DNA of 64,000 nt from Clostridiales bacterium. GTDB taxonomy: Bacteria; Bacillota; Clostridia; TANB77; CAG-508. The notes under the pieces are model-generated. The model was not told where the DNA came from and searched no databases. It was given only the letters and a program-made list of their open reading frames with translations. Where the stretch lies: positions 8,186-72,185 of the forward strand of contig SFKS01000001.1 of NCBI GenBank assembly GCA_004554705.1, in the 5' to 3' direction. A program made the position numbers and the translations under genes. Positions 1 through 53,792 of the stretch are shown one piece after another (position 1 is the first letter of the stretch; each line of letters starts with the position of its first letter).

Positions 1-1
1 G

Positions 2-409
2 GATCCTGCTGCATTACATAAGCCAAAAAGATTTTTTGGTGCAGCAAGAAATACTGAAGATGCAGGAAGTTTGACTATCTTAGCAACCGCACTTGTAGAA
101 ACAGGAAGTAGAATGGATGATGTTATATTTGAAGAGTTTAAAGGAACAGGTAATATGGAGGTTCACCTAGATAGAGCTTTATCAGAAAAACGTATATTCC
201 CTGCAATTGATATAAACAAATCTGGAACAAGAAAAGAAGAACTGTTGCTTTCAAAAGAAGAACTAGAAACAATATTTGCTTTAAGAAAAACAATGTCAAA
301 TATGAATACACAAGAAATGACTGAACAAATTATGGAACAAATTGTAACAACAAAATCAAATGCAGAATTTTTAGAAAGAGTAAATATATTTTTAAAAAAT
401 AATAAATAG
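2..409 (+). CDS. rho: Transcription termination factor Rho, C-terminal part (5' end cut by the window edge)
   Basis: The frame is open from position 2. The translation ...[70 protein letters not shown]... matches the conserved Rho ATPase C-terminus. Confidence 0.9.
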
Positions 410-435
410 ATTAGCGAAATTATACTTGTAAGTGA

Positions 436-478
436 GTAGGGAGAGGAGAAAACAATACAAAACTTCTCTACTTGTTTA
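436..478 (+). terminator. Imperfect stem-loop GTAGGGAGAGGAG...CTTCTCTAC just downstream of the rho stop; candidate rho terminator
   Basis: An inverted repeat is seen 27 nt after the rho stop codon. The stem is imperfect and the U-tract is weak. Confidence 0.35.
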
Positions 479-644
479 CAATGCAACATTGCACAAAATC
501 AAAGTTTTGTGCAAAAAGGAATAGGAGTCAAAAAGAAAGTACCCATTTCAAGTACCTCCTCTCAAAATCAGCTATTCCTTGCTATTAGCTTATTTCAGCT
601 ATATTTTATAGACAATAAACTACATTACTTTTATATAAAAACTC

Positions 645-991
645 CTTAAAATCGATTCTGGAGCTTCAATATTTTGTGTTATGCCTGGTTGGATTTTTTT
701 TCATTATTGTAACTACATTTTTAAAAAAATTTTATATAACTTTAGATTATTTTATCAAAATTTCCTAAATCCTTAATTTTAAGTATTTTGCTTAATTTTT
801 TATCGATTCTCGTGCGTCGTTTTTTTAGCCATTTTTCAGCATTTTTAAAAAGTGCCTAAAATTAAGCATTTCTATAAGAATTACATTATAATTATTATAT
901 TTTATAAATTGAACATTAAAATTCAAACATATAACTTGTTAGATAAAATATTAAAATGCCTTAAAATTGATTTTGGTGCGTCTATAATATG
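645..991. repeat. Three to four degenerate ~30-bp direct repeats (consensus CCTTAAAATYGATTYTGGWGCKTCWATAWT) at ~157-bp spacing in an ORF-free region
   Basis: Full copies sit at 645-674, 796-819 and 958-991, with a shorter related copy at 854-882. The copies are about 75-85% identical. No ORF longer than 60 aa is present in 420-1168 on the + strand. Confidence 0.6.
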
Positions 992-1168
992 AAATTATAT
1001 ATTTGTTTTTCTTAATTTTAATGCTTCTAACATATAATTATCACCACCTTTTAAAATACAAATTACTATTTTATCTCTAATTCATATGTATAAAAAATCA
1101 AAAAAATTATACATGTTTTCAAAATATGTATAATTTTTTATGAATTTTGACAACTTACTATTTATCGT

Positions 1169-2239
1169 TTAATAATTTATTTTTACAATCCATTCTCCAT
1201 TTTTCTTTGAGTTTATTCTTTCTATCAATCCTTTTTCTTGCATTTCTCCCATATATTTTTTAACAGTTCTTAATGATTTGTTAATTTTATTGGCGATTTC
1301 TTCTTGAGTTATAGAAGGTTTTGCCTTAAGTATATTAATAATTGCCTGTTCTTCCAAAGTACAATTATTTACTTTTAAATCATCCTTATTTTCATCTTGA
1401 ATATAGTCGATATGTGTATATCTGTTTTTTAATTTATTATTACTACCTGTAAGTAAATTATAAAAAAATTTTTCTAAATATGATATATCTTCAAAAATGT
1501 TTTTTTCAAAGTTTTTGTAATTAGCTCTTACTAATGAATTTCTAAAATACCATGAATTATCTGCAAAAACTTCATCATTGATATTAAACCCAAATGTTCT
1601 TAAATATTTTATTATAAACACTGCTGTAGTTCTTGTGTTGCCTTCACAAAATGGATGTACTTGCCATATGTTTGAAGTAAATCTACATAAATGTTTTATT
1701 GACTCTTCTAACCCTAGATCTTTATATGAAAAATTTCTTTCTTGTTCAAAATCATACTCAATAGTATCTTTTATTGTTTCATATGATGAATATATTACTG
1801 TATCTCCATTTAATACCCATTCTTTTTTTGTAAAATTATAATCTCTATATTTTCCTGCTGTCCTTAATATTCCTGTAAATAATCGTTTATGAATATTTAA
1901 CAATTCTGTTATAGAAAAGTTAAATGCTTTTTCACTTAATATTTCTGTTATTCTAGTAGCTACCTTATCTGCTTCTTCACTTTCTTGTTCAAAATCTTTT
2001 CTGCTATTTTGTACTTCATAATACTCATTTATTCTTTTTTTTACTTCTTCTATATTAATTTTTCCTTCAATATGTTCTTTTGCTGTTTTTATTAGATATT
2101 TTGATGGTTTTAATCCATCTACATCTTGAAGTCCTATTGCTGTTTCCCACACTTTTGTTTTTTCTACTTGAGTTGGCTCGCCTTGTTTAATATATTCAGA
2201 TAATTCTAAATTCCAATCTTTTTTCTTATCCATAACCAA
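1169..2239 (-). CDS. Fic/DOC family protein with a C-terminal winged-helix DNA-binding domain; the Fic motif is noncanonical (HPFCEGNTRTTA)
   Basis: The Fic core motif HPFxEGN is present, but T replaces the second G and A replaces the final R of the canonical HxFx(D/E)GNGRxxR. The C-terminal ~70 aa resemble a MarR/wHTH fold (…LRTVKKYMGEMQEKGLIERI…). Confidence 0.8.
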   Translation of the reverse strand: MVMDKKKDWNLELSEYIKQGEPTQVEKTKVWETAIGLQDVDGLKPSKYLIKTAKEHIEGKINIEEVKKRINEYYEVQNSRKDFEQESEEADKVATRITEILSEKAFNFSITELLNIHKRLFTGILRTAGKYRDYNFTKKEWVLNGDTVIYSSYETIKDTIEYDFEQERNFSYKDLGLEESIKHLCRFTSNIWQVHPFCEGNTRTTAVFIIKYLRTFGFNINDEVFADNSWYFRNSLVRANYKNFEKNIFEDISYLEKFFYNLLTGSNNKLKNRYTHIDYIQDENKDDLKVNNCTLEEQAIINILKAKPSITQEEIANKINKSLRTVKKYMGEMQEKGLIERINSKKNGEWIVKINY

Positions 2240-2288
2240 ACCTCCTACAAATATAATTATACCATAATTTCAATATAATATCAAATTT

Positions 2289-2331
2289 AAAGTGCAAGTT
2301 TTGCACTTTATTTTTAAAAACATTGCACTTT
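2289..2331. promoter_or_regulatory. Perfect palindrome AAAGTGCAA-gtt-TTGCACTTT plus a third TTGCACTTT half-site 22 bp downstream, in the fic upstream region; putative operator
   Basis: The palindrome sits 50-90 bp upstream of the fic start. The same half-site recurs at 4087-4128 and 5503-5544. Confidence 0.5.
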
Positions 2332-2442
2332 AAAATATTTGTTCTAATTTATTATATAATATTCCCGTATATACTTCATATCCTCTTCTTAGTAATTCAA
2401 TTGCAACCATATTCTCATATCTTAATGACGTTCTATTAGATA

Positions 2443-3273
2443 TTAATAAATTGAAATATCCTTAACTTCTTGTTCTACTCCTGTTAAATCTAGTTTTCCA
2501 TTCATTCCATTAAATACGATAGGAAATGTTTCTTCAAAACCATTACATTCAAATTTTATACACAATTCTGGTGTAGTTGTTTCTGCTAAATAGTTATCTA
2601 AGATAATAAATGGAGTTGTATAATTTTTAATTAAAGTGTTATCTAATTCTAATTCTCCTTGTTCATTTATAAAACAACTATATAAAGTTATTTTCACATC
2701 TTCTGATTTTGGAATTATTACAAAGCGATTTCCTATTTCCTTTTCTCTACTATCAGCTGATCTATAATCTAATACTTCTAAATTATTATATGTATAATTA
2801 TTGTGAAAATTATTATGTATGAATTCATCAATATTACTATCTAATACATAACCTATTGCTAAACATTGATTATCATTGAAATTTATAGTTGTTCCATTTG
2901 TTGTATTAACTTCTACAGCTTTACCCTCAAGAAAATCTACTACATCTCCAGAAATAGTATCTAATGCATAACCTGTTTCATCATCAAATCTATAATGAGC
3001 AACTTCTTCATCATTCTCATCATAGACAATTGCTATAAATTCACTGCTTTCGTAATAGCAATAAATATCTTCTGGATCACAATTGTGATATTGACTTATT
3101 TTTTCTTGCCACCCTCTTACAGTCATACATTTAAATTCTACTGAATCTTCATATATCATTCCGTCTTTATCTGGAACAAACATAAAACATTTAACATAAA
3201 TTATTGCACATATTACACATATCGCTATTCCTATTAAAATACCAATTATCACTTTTTTCATTTTAGCCCTCAT
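2443..3273 (-). CDS. Hypothetical membrane-anchored protein (N-terminal TM/signal anchor, Cys-containing extracytoplasmic domain)
   Basis: The 276-aa ORF has the hydrophobic N-terminus KKVIIGILIGIAICVICAIIYV. No recognisable catalytic motif was found. Confidence 0.5.
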   Translation of the reverse strand: MRAKMKKVIIGILIGIAICVICAIIYVKCFMFVPDKDGMIYEDSVEFKCMTVRGWQEKISQYHNCDPEDIYCYYESSEFIAIVYDENDEEVAHYRFDDETGYALDTISGDVVDFLEGKAVEVNTTNGTTINFNDNQCLAIGYVLDSNIDEFIHNNFHNNYTYNNLEVLDYRSADSREKEIGNRFVIIPKSEDVKITLYSCFINEQGELELDNTLIKNYTTPFIILDNYLAETTTPELCIKFECNGFEETFPIVFNGMNGKLDLTGVEQEVKDISIY

Positions 3274-3295
3274 TTTCTTTTAATCTTTATTGTAT

Positions 3296-3341
3296 AAAAA
3301 GGAATAAAGAATCATTGCTAAAAGTGTCTTTATTCCTTTTT
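3296..3341 (-). terminator. Rho-independent terminator (AAAAAGGAATAAAGA ... TCTTTATTCCTTTTT)
   Basis: A 15-bp stem is flanked by an A-run and a T-run, directly after the stop codon of the 3347-3877 gene. Confidence 0.6.
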
Positions 3342-3346
3342 ATATA

Positions 3347-3877
3347 TTATTCAACTGAAAATGTTAAAGTATTTAATATATTTTGAACAACTTCTGAATC
3401 AAATGCTGCTTTTACTTCTTCTTGATTTGATGACATAATGTCTTTTGAATAAACACATAATGATGCATATACAGTATCTGATACAGGCAATACAACTTTA
3501 TATGTATCATATCCAGCATAATAATAAGAGAATCCATTAATTCCATTATATGTCACTTCTTTATATTCTTCATCATCTTTATGTTCTTCTTTTAAATTAT
3601 TTATATTTTCGCCACTCCAAAATTTATCAAATTGAATTGTAATGTTAAAAGTATCTCCTTTTAATATTGCATCATTACGAGATGTTCTAAAATCCTCTTC
3701 GTTAGTTGACAAAGTATAATTAGCTCCTTCTTCAAAACTTAAATTTATTGTTGCTTTTGTATCTTCATCATCCTTAAATGAAACTGTTTCAAGTTTTCCT
3801 TTTCCACATCCTGTTAAAGCAACTACGCTCATTGCTAAAATAGCAAAAATTAATATTATTGAAACTATTTTTTTCAT
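3347..3877 (-). CDS. Putative lipoprotein
   Basis: Signal peptide with lipobox ...VVALTGC; 176 aa with no conserved domain recognised. Confidence 0.55.
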   Translation of the reverse strand: MKKIVSIILIFAILAMSVVALTGCGKGKLETVSFKDDEDTKATINLSFEEGANYTLSTNEEDFRTSRNDAILKGDTFNITIQFDKFWSGENINNLKEEHKDDEEYKEVTYNGINGFSYYYAGYDTYKVVLPVSDTVYASLCVYSKDIMSSNQEEVKAAFDSEVVQNILNTLTFSVE

Positions 3878-4080
3878 ATTTTCCTCCTTTCCAATTATAT
3901 TATTTATATCAAATTTTTTTGAATTTGAATAACTACTTACTGTGTGTCTATTTTCTCTTTCAATTCTGAAATTTAATAGTTTTTTTCTTCTACATATCTA
4001 TCCTTTCTTAAGATATTACATATTTTAAATTTTGTTTCACTTTTTTTATAATTCTATTATATATTTTTTAAAAAGACATC

Positions 4081-4133
4081 GTCCCTGAGGTGCAAATTTT
4101 TGACTTTTTTTGCCCCAAAAGTGCAAATTTTGT
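4081..4133 (+). repeat. Copy A of a ~50-bp repeated element carrying two AAAGTGCAAAT-like half-sites 31 bp apart
   Basis: Sequence gtccctgaGGTGCAAATttttgactttttttgccccaAAAGTGCAAATttt. It is about 90% identical to copy B at 5495-5547. Confidence 0.7.
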
Positions 4134-4166
4134 TAATGCTCAGTAGTTCTAATTAAAATTGTATAA

Positions 4167-4209
4167 AATATTGTAGGGGCGCCCTTTGGGCGTCCCTACA
4201 ATATTTTAT
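4167..4209. terminator. Strong GC-clamped hairpin AATATTGTAGGGGCGCCC-ttt-GGGCGTCCCTACAATATT followed by a T-run
   Basis: The palindrome has 18-nt arms. A GC-rich core is unusual in this AT-rich intergenic DNA. It lies between divergent genes, so it is not an ordinary gene-end terminator. Confidence 0.55.
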
Positions 4210-4293
4210 GACCTACTAAACATTAACCAATTTTTTATATTGTCTTTTATTTTTCTCTATTTTGTGATAAACTAGATGTATCGTTGATAGGAG

Positions 4294-4938
4294 GTGTTTT
4301 TTTTGTATAATATTATTGTAATAGATGATCATCAAATGTTGAGAGATATGATTTCCGAAACATTAAGTGCCCAAGATGATTTAAATGTTGTTGCAACTTC
4401 TGGAAATGCTAAAGATTCTCTTGAGCTATGTAAAAAATTGAATCCAGATTTAGTATTAATGGATGTGTGTACTGAAAATAATTCAAATGGAATTGCATAT
4501 TCTAAACTTTTAAAAAAACAGTTTCCTAATGTAAAAGTTATTATTATGACAGGTATTTTGGATTTGAATTTTATAAATGATGCAAAAGAGGCTGGAGTTG
4601 ATAGTTTTATATACAAAAATATTAGTAAAGACTCGCTTATTATGACTATAAAAAATACTTTAGATGGATATTCTATGTATCCTAATGATAAAAATAATTT
4701 GTCAAAAGATAATATATTATCTAATTTAACAGATTCTGAATTAAAAGTTTTAACTTTATACTGCAAATTATTAGATAGAGATGAAGTAGCAAATAAACTT
4801 GGAATATCTGCAAGGACACTAAAATCTCATATTTCATCTATTTATGCAAAAACAGGTTATGACAATTTAGCTAAACTTTCTGTTTATTGCGTATCTAATG
4901 GTTTAATTGTTCCTAACCTTGAATCACCTGAAGAATAA
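4294..4938 (+). CDS. Orphan NarL/LuxR (FixJ) family response regulator; the likely true start is TTG at 4303
   Basis: The receiver domain has DD at the N-terminus, the LVLMDV phospho-acceptor Asp, a conserved T, and K in SFIYK. The C-terminus carries a LuxR-type HTH (SELKVLTLYCKLLDRDEVANKLGISARTLKSHISSIYAKTG). The RBS AGGAGGTG lies 6 nt before TTG at 4303. No histidine kinase is adjacent. Confidence 0.8.
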   Translation: MFFLYNIIVIDDHQMLRDMISETLSAQDDLNVVATSGNAKDSLELCKKLNPDLVLMDVCTENNSNGIAYSKLLKKQFPNVKVIIMTGILDLNFINDAKEAGVDSFIYKNISKDSLIMTIKNTLDGYSMYPNDKNNLSKDNILSNLTDSELKVLTLYCKLLDRDEVANKLGISARTLKSHISSIYAKTGYDNLAKLSVYCVSNGLIVPNLESPEE

Positions 4939-4972
4939 AATAACTGCTATTTCTAGCAGTTATTATTTTTTC
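4939..4972. terminator. Bidirectional rho-independent terminator (AATAACTGCTA-tttc-TAGCAGTTATT + T-run) between convergent genes
   Basis: A perfect 11-bp stem overlaps the stop codon of the minus-strand gene. U-tracts are present on both strands. Confidence 0.7.
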
Positions 4973-5448
4973 TTATTAAATATCTTTTCTAAAAAATCAC
5001 GAATACTGTTAATCTTGTTTCTTCTTATTGTGTAATCAGCATAAGTTCCTTCTTCTATCATCCTTTCACGATTTTTCGTTAACATATCATCTCTTTTGTC
5101 ATTTATAATCCTATTAGCAGTATCTTTTAAAGTGTCTTTAGCTATTTCTGCTCTGTTTTCATATAAGATATCCTTAGCAATTTTTACAGACTGTTTTTTT
5201 TCTTCTTTTGTCATTTTTTTTGCTTTTGGTGTGCATTTTGATACTAGCGTATTAAATCGGTTTAACAATTCTGATGTAGAAAATTGCTGTTCAAATTCTG
5301 AAGCACTACTACATTTCTCACCTAAAGCCTGTGTATCTTTAATAAACATATCCATTTCTGATTTTAAATCATCTGGAACAGAAAAATAATCTTCAAAAAA
5401 GTTAATTTTTGCATCTACACAATTTTTTACTTCATCTAACATAAGCAT
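4963..5448 (-). CDS. Hypothetical protein (161 aa, charged/helical); the likely start is Met3 at 5442
   Basis: This is an ORF call only. The RBS GAAAGGAG is 7 nt from the second ATG. Repeat copy B lies in its promoter region. Confidence 0.5.
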   Translation of the reverse strand: MLMLDEVKNCVDAKINFFEDYFSVPDDLKSEMDMFIKDTQALGEKCSSASEFEQQFSTSELLNRFNTLVSKCTPKAKKMTKEEKKQSVKIAKDILYENRAEIAKDTLKDTANRIINDKRDDMLTKNRERMIEEGTYADYTIRRNKINSIRDFLEKIFNKKK

Positions 5449-5494
5449 ACTCCTTTCATTATTACATTATACCATTATATTATTTCTTTTTGCA

Positions 5495-5547
5495 TTGTCC
5501 TTAAAGTGCAAATTTTTACTTTTTCTTGCCCCAAAAGTGCAAATTTA
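5495..5547 (+). repeat. Copy B of the ~50-bp AAAGTGCAAAT-bearing element
   Basis: Sequence gtccttaAAGTGCAAATttttactttttcttgccccaAAAGTGCAAATtta. It sits 50-100 bp upstream of the 4963-5448 gene start. Confidence 0.7.
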
Positions 5548-5828
5548 AATATTGTTGTAATACAGAAAGATTTTGCCCTAGTAAATCGTGATATTTATTT
5601 TTTATTTTAAGTAGGTTTTTCTCTTTTTCTAGTTTTTCTATATTTTCTATACTTGTTACTAGTTCTGTATTATTAAGTTTTATTTTTTCATTTTGTTCAT
5701 CTAATTCTTTTTTTAAGCAATATTCTTCTGTTATATCAAATGCTATTACTTCATTTTGGTTAATAATAAATAGGTAATATTTTTACTACTTTGTCAACAG
5801 TCTGAAATATAATTATTTAATATCTTTT

Positions 5829-7413
5829 TTATCTAGATTTTGGTCCTTCGCCAATAGTTGTATCTACATTATATAAAAGTGGTTCATAAACTGTTCCTAC
5901 AAACCAAATAGTTCCATCTTCTTTGTCTCTTATTAAAAACATATATGGTTTATCAAAAGTTAAATCGATTTCTTCTACAGGTACATCGTATAAATAGTCA
6001 AAAAAGCTTCCTGCTCCTGCTCCACCTATCCATGTTGCTGCTGCTGCTTTTATACCATCTTGTGTAAATTCTATATTTGCTTTGTGACCAGCGTCTGTTA
6101 TATATGTATCCTTGTCATCACAAATTCCAGTTAAATTTGCTTTCCCTTCTTCAAAAATATTAGTTATTCCTAATTGTTGTAGGTCTTTTTTTAGGTTTAG
6201 TTCATATTCAAATTTAAATTTTGGAATATATCCTGTAATTTTTGTTACTACTCCAGATTTAAAATTTTCTACTTTTAAATCCTTTAGTTTATTTATTATA
6301 TTATCTATTTCTGCTTTATCTATATTTTTAATATAGTTATCTAAATCCTCTGTTGTTGGCATTATACCAATATATTGTAATGTTGTTCCATTGTATTCCT
6401 TTAAATCCTTTGCAAATACTTTGATGTTATTATCTACATATATAGAAAAATCTGTGGTATAATCTACTCTCTTATAATTTGAGTTTATTGCTGGAATATA
6501 TGTTTCTAAATATTTATTTGCTTCTTCTTCTATATTACTATCTGTTAAATCTTTATTACAATACTGCTTAAACTCTTCTTCACTTATACTTTTTGCCCAT
6601 TTTTTAAATTCGTTTTTCACGGTTTCTCTTATATTTGCTTCACCTATTTCTTTAACTATATCATAGTTATTTATAGATGCTATAATTTCCATACCTGAAA
6701 CCTTTTGAGAGTTTTCACCAAATTTATGTTCCGTAGGGTTTTCTGGTCCTACCCAGTAAAATTTTTCGTGTTCATAGAAACATTCTACCGGGCGTCCGGG
6801 TTTTTATAAATTTATCTTCCCAGTCCATATCTATTGCTAGTGCATTTATCAACATAAAGACCGTATTCTTGTCAACTTCTTCAAATAAGTCCTTAATTAA
6901 ATTTAATGTTTTATTGCTTACCCAAGAGTTAAGATTTTCTGGGCTTGAGAAAGAATCAACTTTAACTTCAGCGTTATATTTGGTTTTTAATGTACTTATA
7001 TAACTATTTTTAATTTTATTTTCATATGAATCCTTTGCAAATAATGCATTGGCAAAAGCCATATTGCTATTTGAGTTGTATTTTTTTAAGGTTTCATTTC
7101 CTAGTACATTAGAAATTTGTAACTTTGATTCACCTTCTGTGCCTTCTTCTAGCATTTTTAATGCATATTTTATTGATAGTGGACTATAAATCTTGTTTGC
7201 TTTTTGATTCTCCATCTTTAAAAACTTAATATCAAAATTTGAAGTATCTCCTTTTATGGTTTCTTTGTTCTCACTCTCATTTTTAGGTGGATTTGCTAAT
7301 ATGTCAGTATTTGTTGTTTTGTTGTTACATCCTGTTAATAAGATAGTCATTAGCAATACCAATGCTGTAATTAAAATTTTTTCAAAAAATTTCTTCATTC
7401 TAAATTCCTCCAA
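5829..7413 (-). pseudogene. Serpin (serine protease inhibitor) lipoprotein gene disrupted by a frameshift near 6786-6803
   Basis: The N-terminal ORF 6772-7413 has a lipoprotein signal (LLTGC) and serpin N-terminal motifs (KIYSPLSIKYALKML, NSWVSNKT, VFMLINALAIDMDWEDKF). The C-terminal ORF 5829-6692 has a serpin reactive-centre-loop/hinge (GIKAAAATWIGGAGAG) and C-terminal signature (FDKPYMFLIRDKEDGTIWFVGTVYEP). The two ORFs join in one reading frame across a single-base shift at the GC-rich site CCCGGACGCCCGG. Confidence 0.75.
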
Positions 7414-7547
7414 TTATTTTTATAAATTTAAACTATAGTTAAATTTTATATTATATGTATTTTTTTGTCAATAAAAAGCAAAAAATTTTAAATAATTTTA
7501 AAAAAGTATTTTAAAATTATAAATTATATTATATAAATATATATGAG

Positions 7548-8543
7548 GTGTTATTTATGATTGATCGTAAAGAAAATCCTGAATTTCTTAATTCTTTTTT
7601 AGATTATACAATTACTATACTTAATAAATCTCCCAATACTATTAAAGAATATAATTATGATATATCAAACTTTTTAAAATATATAAAAAAAGAATTTAAA
7701 TTATCTGAAGAAAAAAATATAAAGAATATTAAAATAGATGATATGGATATTTCTGTACTTAAAAAAATTACTCTTCAAGATATTCATGGATATATTTCAT
7801 ATATGGCAAGAGAGTTTAAGAGTACTCCTGCTACACGTGCAAGAAAAATATCTTCTCTTAGAGTGTTTTTTAAGTATCTTACTAGTAAAGCAAAATTACT
7901 TGAAGTAAATCCTGCACAAGATTTAGAAACGCCCAAACTTGGTCGTAGAATGCCAAAATATTTGTCTCTCGAAGAAAGCAAAAAGCTTCTAGAGGTAACT
8001 CAAAGCCAAGACAATAGAAACAATATAAGAGATTATGCAATTATAACTTTATTTTTGAATTGTGGTATGCGTTTATCTGAATTAGTTAATATTAATATAA
8101 GTGATATAGATTTATCAGAAAGTAAGATGACAGTTATAGGTAAAGGTAATAAGGAACGTACTATTTACTTAAATAAAGCATGTATGAATTCTATTAATGA
8201 TTATTTATCTATTAGACCCCATGATAAGGTTAAATTTGATTCTCGTGATGCACTATTTTTAAGTGAGCGTAAAGAAAGGATTAGTAATAGAACTGTACAG
8301 GATATTGTAAAAAAAGAGCTAAAAAAAGCTGAATTAGATATAAAAAAGTATTCTGTTCATAAATTAAGACATACTGCTGCTACACTCATGTATCAATATG
8401 GTAATGTTGATATCAGAGCTTTGCAAGAGCTTCTTGGACATGAAAGTATTTCTACTACTGAAATATATACGCATGTAAATAATGAAATAGTAAGAAATGC
8501 TGTTGAGAATAACCCTCTTGCAACGGAAAATAGGAAAATTTAA
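7548..8543 (+). CDS. Tyrosine site-specific recombinase (phage-integrase/XerC-like); the likely start is ATG at 7557
   Basis: The C-terminal catalytic region is HKLRHTAATLMYQYGNVDIRALQELLGHESISTTEIYTHV (R...HxxR...Y). The RBS GAGGTG is 6 nt before ATG at 7557. Confidence 0.85.
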   Translation: MLFMIDRKENPEFLNSFLDYTITILNKSPNTIKEYNYDISNFLKYIKKEFKLSEEKNIKNIKIDDMDISVLKKITLQDIHGYISYMAREFKSTPATRARKISSLRVFFKYLTSKAKLLEVNPAQDLETPKLGRRMPKYLSLEESKKLLEVTQSQDNRNNIRDYAIITLFLNCGMRLSELVNINISDIDLSESKMTVIGKGNKERTIYLNKACMNSINDYLSIRPHDKVKFDSRDALFLSERKERISNRTVQDIVKKELKKAELDIKKYSVHKLRHTAATLMYQYGNVDIRALQELLGHESISTTEIYTHVNNEIVRNAVENNPLATENRKI

Positions 8544-8571
8544 GAGACAGTGAGATATATCTCTCTGTCTC
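8544..8571. terminator. Inverted repeat GAGACAGTGAGATAT/ATCTCTCTGTCTC between the convergent integrase and SH3b genes
   Basis: The hairpin has a 13-nt stem. The minus strand carries a U-rich tract, so it likely terminates the SH3b gene. Confidence 0.5.
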
Positions 8572-8579
8572 TTGCCAAC

Positions 8580-8915
8580 TCAATCACCATCACCAAACGA
8601 AAGTCCCTTTACGGAGACCCATCCATATTGGGTCTCCACCCAATACGGATGGGGGCCGTCCATATACTCATACCTCCTTCCGGTAAGATACACTGTATCT
8701 CCAAAATACAGTTCATCTATGATTTCCGAGTTTAACCCCGGGCTTGCACGGACGTTTAACCGCTCATAAGAGACGGTTGCACTTTTCCCTACAGATTCGG
8801 GGTTATACTTTTCCCCGAATTGGGAAAAAAGGAGGATTGTGCTTCCGATGACAGCTACAACTGTCAAACAAAAGCTGAAAAATTTCCTTTTGTTTGTTAT
8901 TCTGTACTTTTTCAT
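8580..8915 (-). CDS. Membrane-anchored bacterial SH3 (SH3b/SH3_3) domain protein, GC-anomalous
   Basis: The ORF has an N-terminal TM/signal segment and an SH3b-like core (SYERLNVRASPGLNSEIIDELYFGDTVYL...GWVSVKGL). It is about 45% GC against about 27% for its neighbours. The RBS is GGAGAAAG. Confidence 0.7.
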   Translation of the reverse strand: MKKYRITNKRKFFSFCLTVVAVIGSTILLFSQFGEKYNPESVGKSATVSYERLNVRASPGLNSEIIDELYFGDTVYLTGRRYEYMDGPHPYWVETQYGWVSVKGLSFGDGD

Positions 8916-9091
8916 ATAGTTTCTTTCTCCAACTTAGCGTTAGGTAGTTGGCACCTTGCGGGTCAGACCTATTATACTCTGCCCTAGTAACTATTTACTT
9001 ACTTATATTATACTATTATTTATGTCAAAATGCAAATTTAAAGGAAATAATCTCTTTTATTAAAAGAAGGTTATTTCCTTTTGCAGTAGCC

Positions 9092-53438: not shown

Positions 53439-53444
53439 TATATG

Positions 53445-53792
53445 AGAGTATATCTATAAGCCGGGTTCTGTCTTGAACAGTCATTTATCTAGGATATATA
53501 TTACTACATATCTCAAGCCACCAATTCAGAAGATGACGAGCAGTCTTAGCCTTCTTTTTAGGTGTTGCTCCAGATGGGGTTTACATTGACCCACGTTTGT
53601 CTCCAAACTGGCGGTAAGCTCTTACCTCACCTTTTCACCTATTGCTCTAGCAAAGCTAGGGCTGTTATTTTCTGTTGCACTTTCCTTAAGGTTACCCTCA
53701 CTGGACGTTATCCAGCATCATTGCTCTATGGAGCCCGGACTTTCCTCATGTAGACCCTTGCGAGTTCTATACGCGACTGTTCGATATACTCT
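53445..53792 (-). ncRNA. rnpB: RNase P RNA (ribozyme component of RNase P, Firmicute type B)
   Basis: The minus-strand transcript contains the universal P4 elements GAGGAAAGUCCGGGCUCCAUAG and ACAGAACCCGGCUUAU. The P1 helix pairs GAGUAUAUC (5') with GAUAUACUC (3'). The region is GC-rich and structured, with no credible ORF. Confidence 0.88.

Follow-up and report, generated by a model that had tools for sequence, protein, structure and literature searches.

Among described systems, CccR of Yersinia pseudotuberculosis combines a Fic domain with a C-terminal helix-turn-helix (HTH) and represses its own promoter via inverted repeats near the -35 and -10 boxes, as documented by lacZ fusions, electrophoretic mobility shift assays, footprinting and isothermal titration calorimetry (PMC9755527). 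The CccR HTH alone binds the repeat and represses transcription, and its operator, AGATAATCAT-N26-ATGATAATCT, spans the -35/-10 region, matching DNA-binding domains 70 Å apart (PMC9755527). Here we examine a 64,000-nt stretch of a Clostridiales bacterium genome (contig SFKS01000001.1, positions 8,186 to 72,185; hereafter the window), in which a fic gene is preceded by a perfect 9-3-9 palindrome and a third copy of its half-site. Comparison with related loci (designated by L numbers) suggests that this site is very probably a functional protein-binding element tied to the fic gene and that its binder is likely the gene's own winged helix. It appears fairly likely that palindrome and third half-site together form a repressive, autoregulatory operator of fic on which this winged helix acts.

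Read on the gene strand, which is the minus strand of the window, the promoter runs AAAGTGCAA (2331-2323), 13 nt, AAAGTGCAA-aac-TTGCACTTT (2309-2289), aaat, TTGATA (2284-2279), followed by 17 nt, TGgTATAAT (2264-2256), GGAGG (2245-2241) and ATG (2233). The three half-sites lie 56-98 nt upstream of the fic start codon, the distal one being a direct repeat of the palindrome's upstream arm, 22 nt (start to start) from the right arm. In a promoter scan of positions 1-6000, TTGATA-17-TATAAT scored 11/12, joint top with two others, and the fic promoter was the only one of these three with a TG extension. The coordinates and sequences that a first-pass annotation had given for all of the sites proved right when the sequence was read again. 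In the A+T-rich window (25-34% G+C), the exact 9-mer occurs nine times against 1.6 expected, and none of 100 shuffles reached nine. Three copies belong to the fic promoter and three to two 54-nt repeats discussed below (4118, 5503 and 5534), while the remaining ones at 8777, 53675 (inside the RNase P RNA) and 60197 appear to be incidental. The 21-nt palindrome occurs nowhere else in the window, for which the expectation is 0.11 even when up to three mismatches are allowed. A literature search by sequence words of the motif returned primer lists only, and viral matches to GCCCCAAAAGTGCAAA were unrelated chance matches.

For conservation we compared 85 fic loci: L001 (96% identical), L002-L005 (an 82%-identical copy) and 80 loci from 80 species representatives (73-84%), the latter being metagenome-assembled genomes of Clostridia, Bacilli and Erysipelotrichaceae. 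The best match in the genome scan was 84% identical; strains of the window species were reached through a 159-aa protein encoded elsewhere in the window. The protein family is very large, as all 8,000 candidates scored reached E <= 1e-20, and its members abound in gut Firmicutes and Bacteroidota. The operator was scored in 80 sequences (the window, L001, L002 and 77 of the 80 representative loci), whose protein identities range over 73-99%. Sought upstream of these orthologues, the motif was kept: the palindrome was perfect in 74/80, had one mismatch in four and two mismatches in two, and the distal half-site was present within one mismatch in 74/80, at a start-to-start distance of 21 (38 hits), 22 (23) or 20 nt (9). 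The 3-nt spacer varies (AAA 54, TTT 10, AAT 8, ATT 3, others 5), and it diverges among orthologues together with the 11-14-nt gap before the distal site and all DNA upstream. Downstream, TTGATA follows the palindrome after 4-5 nt, with a TTGAT core at the same offset in orthologues, and TATAAT is found 27-28 nt after the palindrome in 73/78 scored orthologues, with TG upstream in 70. A palindrome perfect in 74 of 80 sequences, with its distal half-site mostly 20-22 nt away, is not a matter of chance; shuffles and conservation together rule out such an origin. As judged from the aligned sequences, the pattern is that of a classic phylogenetic footprint, left by a protein-binding site at a fixed distance from its promoter. 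The genes around fic differ between loci, forming unrelated neighbourhoods. BLAST of window positions 1-9000 against the 85 loci found homology to about 1150-2365 only, that is, fic and ~100 bp upstream, and DNA homology begins at or just outside the distal half-site.

As for the binder, the site follows the type of winged helix. The product of fic matches Pfam Fic (PF02661, E 1.9e-11) at residues 106-211 and HTH_24 (E 6.8e-11) at residues 296-338, with further matches to HTH_11 and MarR; a profile search of PDB sequences placed the Fic domain nearest VbhT/Bep and the winged helix nearest LrpA/FabT. Three distant homologues in viral contigs (L147, L155 and L164) have the same C-terminal winged helix and a half-site cluster. 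A fourth, L154, has the same winged helix with a variant cluster, carrying AAAGTGCCA in both direct-repeat half-sites, which are unable to pair with each other. L039 and L046, with their symmetric ATAGTGCAA...TTGCACTAT, likewise show coordinated change of the half-sites. No half-sites were found in L148-L153 and L156-L163, which possess the same Fic domain with other C-terminal domains. This natural domain swap supports a tie of the motif to the winged-helix type, not to the Fic domain. Apart from the gene's own winged helix, no DNA-binding domain is invariably found with the site. A census was made of the first 120 metagenome contigs returned with the exact palindrome, taken unselected (L184-L303). 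There, 69 palindromes lie in or just upstream of a gene of the Fic-winged-HTH (Fic-wHTH) family, 54 of them inside the gene and 15 in its promoter, 73-78 nt before the ATG; a third half-site at 12, 20-22 or 31 nt was present in 26 of the other 51 loci. Autoregulation of fic through its own winged helix had been mentioned in the first-pass annotation as an alternative, and it now gains comparative support from co-inheritance, winged-helix type and promoter position.

It is unlikely that the palindrome acts instead as an RNA or single-stranded DNA hairpin or as a cruciform, i.e. as a terminator, an insulator, or a structure for a nuclease, recombinase or replication protein. Such a role would fit the terminator-like appearance of the site in a scan (10-pair stem, 3-nt loop and TTTTT tail on the + strand) and the folding of the region, which is better than that of shuffles (z -3.4 to -4.0). 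It would also fit the compensatory arm changes, seen as symmetric ATAGTGCAA...TTGCACTAT palindrome arms in L039 and L046 and in phage genes described below, as well as the different perfect 9-3-9 palindromes which other Mu-like phages carry at the same place. Some palindrome-only metagenome matches likewise resemble ordinary terminators. However, a plain terminator needs no conservation of its stem sequence across bacterial classes, the tail on the gene strand is not a T run (AAATTTGATAT in the window, AAATATTGAT in orthologues), and the site is upstream of the predicted start and hence missing from the fic mRNA. Moreover, a simple hairpin does not account for the conserved third half-site, which stands in direct orientation at distances that match the helical repeat (12, 21-22 or 31 nt), and in L154 both direct repeats changed together, a coordinated change that a hairpin cannot explain. 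A Rho-independent terminator was rejected in particular, as the stem has 3 G-C pairs only and the T tract is on the + strand alone, antisense to fic. In an Rfam scan of the whole window at gathering thresholds, RNase P was the only match, and the palindrome region matched no known RNA.

With the winged helix as the presumed binder, the fic module would comprise ~1.2 kb and be self-contained, with one Fic-wHTH gene behind the operator and a strong sigma-70-type promoter. A winged-helix dimer would occupy the 9-3-9 palindrome and a further subunit the distal half-site, two helical turns off. Given the near-consensus promoter and a palindrome 4 bp from the -35 box, no activator would be needed and binding would be repressive; the resulting negative feedback would keep the amount of a potentially toxic enzyme low and buffered. 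We lean towards repression as the effect on transcription, and regard it as the most probable one, given how closely the promoter matches the consensus and that an excess of the product is likely to do harm. The latter is suggested by the Fic domain, which is nearest that of the class I toxin VbhT, and by the match to the PADLOC profile PDC-S72 (PDLC05078; E 1.5e-124, residues 11-296), while the SoFic model matches more weakly (E 1.2e-12). Fic enzymes modify proteins and can stop growth. Positive autoregulation, in which the Fic winged helix binds the same site but activates, seems improbable. With its centre near -50 and a further site near -78, the operator is placed as class I activator sites classically are, but promoters such as this one (11/12 with a TG extension, and conserved) rarely need activation. 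Negative autoregulation is general among toxin-antitoxin modules and is also what CccR, the characterised Fic-HTH protein, shows, and an enzyme that arrests growth would be dangerous under positive feedback.

The catalytic motif of the protein is non-canonical (HPFCEGNTRTTA at residues ~193-204; HPFGEGNTRT/A in relatives). It departs from HPFx[D/E]GN[G/K]R in that Thr replaces Gly/Lys, and Ala stands where the longer form, HxFx[D/E]GNGRxxR, ends in Arg. Because of these replacements, AMPylation activity is uncertain, and the standard AMPylase description may not apply. The N-terminal AIGLQDVDGLKPS (residues ~40-55) presumably resembles the inhibitory (S/T)xxxE(G/N) helix of VbhA-type antitoxins, with Leu and Asp at key places. 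CccR and SoFic (3EQX) were missing from the PDB sequence matches with single sequence and profile alike, the presence of a CccR chain in that set being unchecked, and a full-text literature search for 'PDC-S72' found no paper.

In many orthologues, the operator architecture appears a second time inside the gene, at about +836, +858 and +869 from the ATG (range +836 to +880), in the linker just before the winged-helix codons (L061, L066, L067, L052, L078, L079 and L083). In L061 and L066 the internal sequence is tcAAAGTGCAAa-N12-tcAAAGTGCAAaaaTTGCACTTTagaagaacaagc. Its first half-site is read caA-AGT-GCA-Aat (Q-S-A-N) and its second AAG-TGC-AAa (K-C-K), which means that one DNA word is used in two reading frames. 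Codon usage at the internal site is skewed: the TGC:TGT ratio for Cys is 53:19, compared with 52:96 in the rest of these genes (Fisher 8e-8, uncorrected for relatedness), and AAG makes up 44% of Lys codons against 14% elsewhere. Among 75 distinct orthologues, the internal palindrome is exact in 11 and at least two exact half-sites are present in 29; it is also exact in distant homologues (34-74% identity, G+C 0.30-0.63) and makes up the 54 intragenic loci among the 120 of the metagenome census. One of the loci, L147, has fic ~50 nt after an ORF ending ...FCIGK, with the internal palindrome and no promoter copy. An internal promoter for a winged-helix-only product was considered and rejected, as there is neither a -35-like element after the internal palindrome nor an in-frame Met before the recognition helix. 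The most economical idea is that the internal copy is probably an auxiliary operator. In relatives that have it, ~860 nt inside the coding sequence, it could act by looping to the promoter site ~950 bp off or as a transcription roadblock. In the window the internal copy is decayed, and control would be exerted by the promoter site alone. The intragenic copy represents a putative regulatory DNA signal overlaid on coding sequence, in two frames and with skewed codons.

The same palindrome occurs outside fic as well. It is present exactly in 42 IMG/VR viral contigs, with only three of the hits in fic homologues. About 12 hits are in contigs of 55-73% G+C, where the estimated chance expectation is ~0.03. 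At least eight of the high-G+C hits fall within linkers of ParB_N-type proteins, immediately ahead of an HTH-like segment, and the ParB-like hits use all three reading frames (KVQxLHF, KCxxCTL and QSAxFALC). The loci concerned, together with those that bear the other palindromes described below, are L098, L101, L106, L111, L113, L118, L120, L126, L129, L131, L132 and L136; L137-L142; L143; and L144. At least one contig (L131) is Mu-like, its ParB-like gene adjoining a transposase A-like ORF, and the same gene order is found in named Mu-like phages. Other perfect 9-3-9 palindromes take this place in named phages: RcapMu gp13 (L143, 5046-5066) has GGTGGGAAA-act-TTTCCCACC, which is unique in the 39-kb genome, and Sinorhizobium phage Aussie gp9 has GAAGGGCAC-cga-GTGCCCTTC. 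One ParB-like lineage shows compensatory arm changes, AAAGTGCCA-agc-TGGCACTTT and AAAGTGACA-agt-TGTCACTTT. These ParB-like genes are therefore likewise characterized by a 9-3-9 palindrome immediately 5' of their HTH codons, of which one widespread allele is identical to the fic operator. This recurrence hints at cross-talk between a defence gene and mobile elements.

Units of the operator without a gene directly downstream were found at 3338-3379 of L054 and 4042-4083 of L039. Others of these units, which further include L220/L258 near 1691 and L224 near 7393, are located just after the 3' end of other Fic-HTH_24 or DUF6076 genes. Such orphan units, some of them near genes typical of integrative and conjugative elements (DUF6076), would be expected if the motif were a generic mobile or repeated element, or a recombination site at module junctions, associated with fic merely through gene movement. 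The same could be said of the start of homology at the distal half-site, of the unit copies that in many orthologues lie in direct orientation on either side of the 'promoter plus Fic domain' segment, and of the position of fic within a variable island beside tyrosine recombinase genes. Nevertheless, we judge this explanation very unlikely: there is one palindrome in the 64-kb window and one per phage genome where tested (RcapMu), which is not the behaviour of a dispersed repeat, the palindrome keeps a fixed distance to the -35/-10 boxes, no recombinase accompanies it consistently, and no excised or empty-site forms were seen. A dispersed repeat or MITE-like element was likewise rejected, given the single palindrome in 64 kb and flanks which beyond the half-sites are unrelated between loci.

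A different, and improbable, thought is that the palindrome serves as a shared DNA 'address' linking a single-gene defence candidate with mobile elements, the Fic winged helix recognising the site in both. It is based on the retention of the site by phages (some Mu-like) and other mobile elements within ParB-like and HNH-like genes, at 60-73% G+C, in all three frames and with rare codons. If it were true, incoming DNA bearing the site could titrate or recruit the Fic protein, so that derepression or targeting would be coupled to infection, and the intragenic copy, whose conservation exceeds that of the protein, would belong to a sensing or feedback circuit instead of being a relic.

Several observations weigh against an operator bound and repressed by the Fic protein, for which we infer from sequence who binds, the regulatory sign, the stoichiometry and the role of the internal copy. 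Firstly, the palindrome is situated upstream of the -35 box, centred near -50, not over the -35/-10 boxes, a position compatible with an activator. Secondly, identical palindromes exist in phage ParB-like genes, within one HNH-like gene and at intergenic orphan sites without such a winged helix within several kb, and a search with the winged-helix HMM within 600 nt of non-fic palindromes was negative at 49 loci; hence the site is not exclusive to the Fic protein. This identity between fic and phage sites may leave room for a hairpin role or for a factor common to mobile elements, and the symmetry-preserving arm changes in one ParB-like lineage fit a hairpin as well as a co-evolving dimer site. 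Thirdly, some homologues (L147) have an internal copy only, from which it follows that promoter occlusion is not a universal mechanism. Finally, sequence searches do not detect CccR as a relative, so that the likeness is one of architecture only. The features of the window are summarized in Table 1.

Table 1. Positions of the fic promoter elements and of other features in the window (approximate distances in the remarks column with a minus sign are from the predicted transcription start)
Feature	Position	Strand	Remarks
Hairpin TTGCACAAAA-tcaaag-TTTTGTGCAA	489-514		80 nt after the rho stop, between convergent rho and fic
fic	1169-2233	-	354 aa; Fic domain with non-canonical HPFCEGNTRTTA and C-terminal winged helix
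Winged helix-turn-helix codons (residues ~293-350)	1184-1357	-	Pfam HTH_24; proposed operator binder
Decayed internal copy, AAAGTACAA-tta-TTTACTTTT as read on +	1356-1376		arms 8/9 and 5/9
fic ATG	complement of 2231-2233	-	sequence
Ribosome-binding site GGAGG	2241-2245	-	7 nt before ATG; 'taggagg' kept in orthologues
Extended -10, TGgTATAAT	2256-2264	-	promoter scan
-35 hexamer TTGATA	2279-2284	-	4 nt downstream of palindrome
Predicted proximal operator, perfect 9-3-9 palindrome AAAGTGCAA-gtt-TTGCACTTT	2289-2309		~-40 to -60
Palindrome arm AAAGTGCAA	2289-2297		
Palindrome spacer GTT	2298-2300		
Palindrome arm TTGCACTTT	2301-2309		
Predicted distal third half-site (AAAGTGCAA on gene strand; TTGCACTTT on +)	2323-2331	-	~-74 to -82
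54-nt direct repeats	4077-4130 and 5493-5546		85% identical; flank LuxR-type regulator and 159-aa gene
LuxR-type response regulator	4303-4938		Response_reg and GerE domains
RNase P RNA, bacterial class A	53441-53792	-	Rfam, 279 bits; holds incidental AAAGTGCAA match at 53675

The first-pass annotation had also proposed that one regulator controls fic together with the genes at 4.1-5.5 kb. The candidate would be the LuxR-type response regulator, which would bind the shared TTGCAC half-site and co-regulate both. In favour of this, the fic site and the regulator-linked 54-nt repeats have TTGCACTTT in common, with exact copies in the repeats at 4118-4126, 5503-5511 and 5534-5542 (on the + strand as AAAGTGCAA). 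In addition, the three motif clusters all face genes of the minus strand, and hexamer palindromes are known targets of LuxR/NarL-type regulators. However, the repeat consensus is TTGCAC-N5-G(T/G)GCAA, with a second TTGCAC 31 bp downstream and a -10-like box ~30-34 nt further, whereas the fic site is GTGCAA-N3-TTGCAC, i.e. its half-sites stand in the opposite relative orientation. Among the 85 fic loci, none outside the window species showed similarity to the regulator gene or the repeats, BLAST homology to the window stopping at ~1150-2365, and the fic motif tracks the winged-helix type, not the host. Conversely, no fic was called in the 6-8.5 kb around the elements in L178, L304/L306 and L308. 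Common control by this regulator thus appears highly improbable and the proposal did not hold, though some cross-talk between the regulator and the fic site may occur in the window organism.

The 54-nt element itself follows the regulator. In another species (L178) it is present twice (3387-3440 and 5240-5293), before two genes, with the 159-aa homologue beside the regulator. It also occurs in the divergent promoter region of the regulator orthologues L304, L306 (69%; near 2880-2922) and L308 (77%; near 2315-2357), where it adjoins a gene for a 7TM histidine kinase; the element of L304 is perfect, TTGCAC-ttttg-GTGCAA. It was not found in L174, L179 and L182, which have 159-aa homologues without the regulator nearby, and L310, a 67% regulator orthologue, contains neither a TTGCAC nor a GTGCAA hexamer. 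A search with nhmmer using the two 54-nt copies gave no further convincing copy in the window or in L001-L165. The element thus accompanies the LuxR-type regulator in four species, counting that of the window, and is probably the site to which this regulator binds. For annotation, this means that two look-alike motifs of the window can be separated and would belong to different regulators. Between the regulator box and the regulator gene, an inverted repeat with 22-nt arms (4163-4209; 95% complementary), ATAAAATATTGTAGGGGCGCCC ttt GGGCGTCCCTACAATATTTTAT, resembles a strong bidirectional terminator, with no obvious + strand gene to terminate. In some strains of the window species, a block of serpin, serpin, 159-aa gene, regulator and 176-aa gene is tandemly duplicated as a ~4.4-kb unit (L166 and L172 compared with window 3347-7413). 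The serpin is split into two ORFs, 5829-6692 and 6772-7413 (minus strand; positions 13-180 and 215-370 of the Pfam Serpin model), in every strain examined (208 and 287 aa), representing either a fixed frameshift or two genes.

A palindrome at 489-514, previously considered to be related to the fic operator, does lie at these coordinates; its relation to the operator, on the other hand, was not upheld, since they have the hexamer alone in common and its arrangement, TTGCAC-N14-GTGCAA, is the opposite one. It forms an 11-pair hairpin (-9.5 kcal/mol, z -4.2) with A-rich flanks and no T tract on either strand, and is probably a transcript-end hairpin unrelated to the operator. The start of the window is the 3' end of rho, as identified by domain search and in strains of the window species, and the interval from rho to the recombinase is a variable island. 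In other strains (the set compared includes L169-L173), fic is followed by a SoFic-like gene, in some cases with a gene for a DEAD-box helicase beyond it, at the place of the non-coding stretch 560-1168 of the window. A 44-nt direct repeat in the non-coding stretch between fic and rho (633-676 and 948-991; 77% identical, …CCTTAAAATCGATTCTGGAGC…) may represent remnants or junctions, as sister strains have a SoFic-like gene there.

The fic subfamily is listed as a candidate for anti-phage defence, and the predicted operator, AAAGTGCAA-N3-TTGCACTTT with a third half-site, together with a candidate binder makes control of the family experimentally accessible. Compared with known systems, the window fic shares with CccR the Fic domain, the C-terminal HTH and an inverted repeat in its own promoter. 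It differs in that there is no detectable sequence relationship, the site is a compact 9-3-9 palindrome upstream of the -35 box with a third half-site, relatives have an intragenic copy, and the Fic motif, canonical in CccR, is HPFCEGNTRTTA here. In the likeness of toxin-antitoxin operators (Phd/Doc, AbiEi), a potentially toxic enzyme would be restrained by a DNA-binding module on palindromes or repeats of its own promoter, but no separate antitoxin gene is involved, and the DNA-binding domain is fused to the enzyme. The window protein fits the PDC-S72 profile strongly and SoFic weakly, both being single-gene anti-phage defence candidates, and in sister strains a SoFic-like gene adjoins fic within the variable island, whereas we found no cis-regulatory site or DNA target described for these families. 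Auxiliary operators inside coding sequence are exemplified by galOI in galE and lacO2 in lacZ, and parS lies inside parB/spo0J. The fic family resembles these in having a second binding-site copy within the transcribed gene, which in the case of parS is the gene of its binder, but here ~950 bp separate it from the promoter site and some homologues have the internal copy only. The ComA box, TTGCGG-N4-CCGCAA with a third element, is a box of a LuxR/NarL-type response regulator. The 54-nt repeats (4077-4130 and 5493-5546) are similar to it, with hexamer inverted repeats and an extra element upstream of a weak -35, while the fic palindrome is opposite in half-site polarity and spacing and does not co-occur with the regulator. 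Taken together, these comparisons suggest that the circuit is a Fic-HTH autoregulator with a compact three-half-site operator and, family-wide, a putative second operator within the gene.

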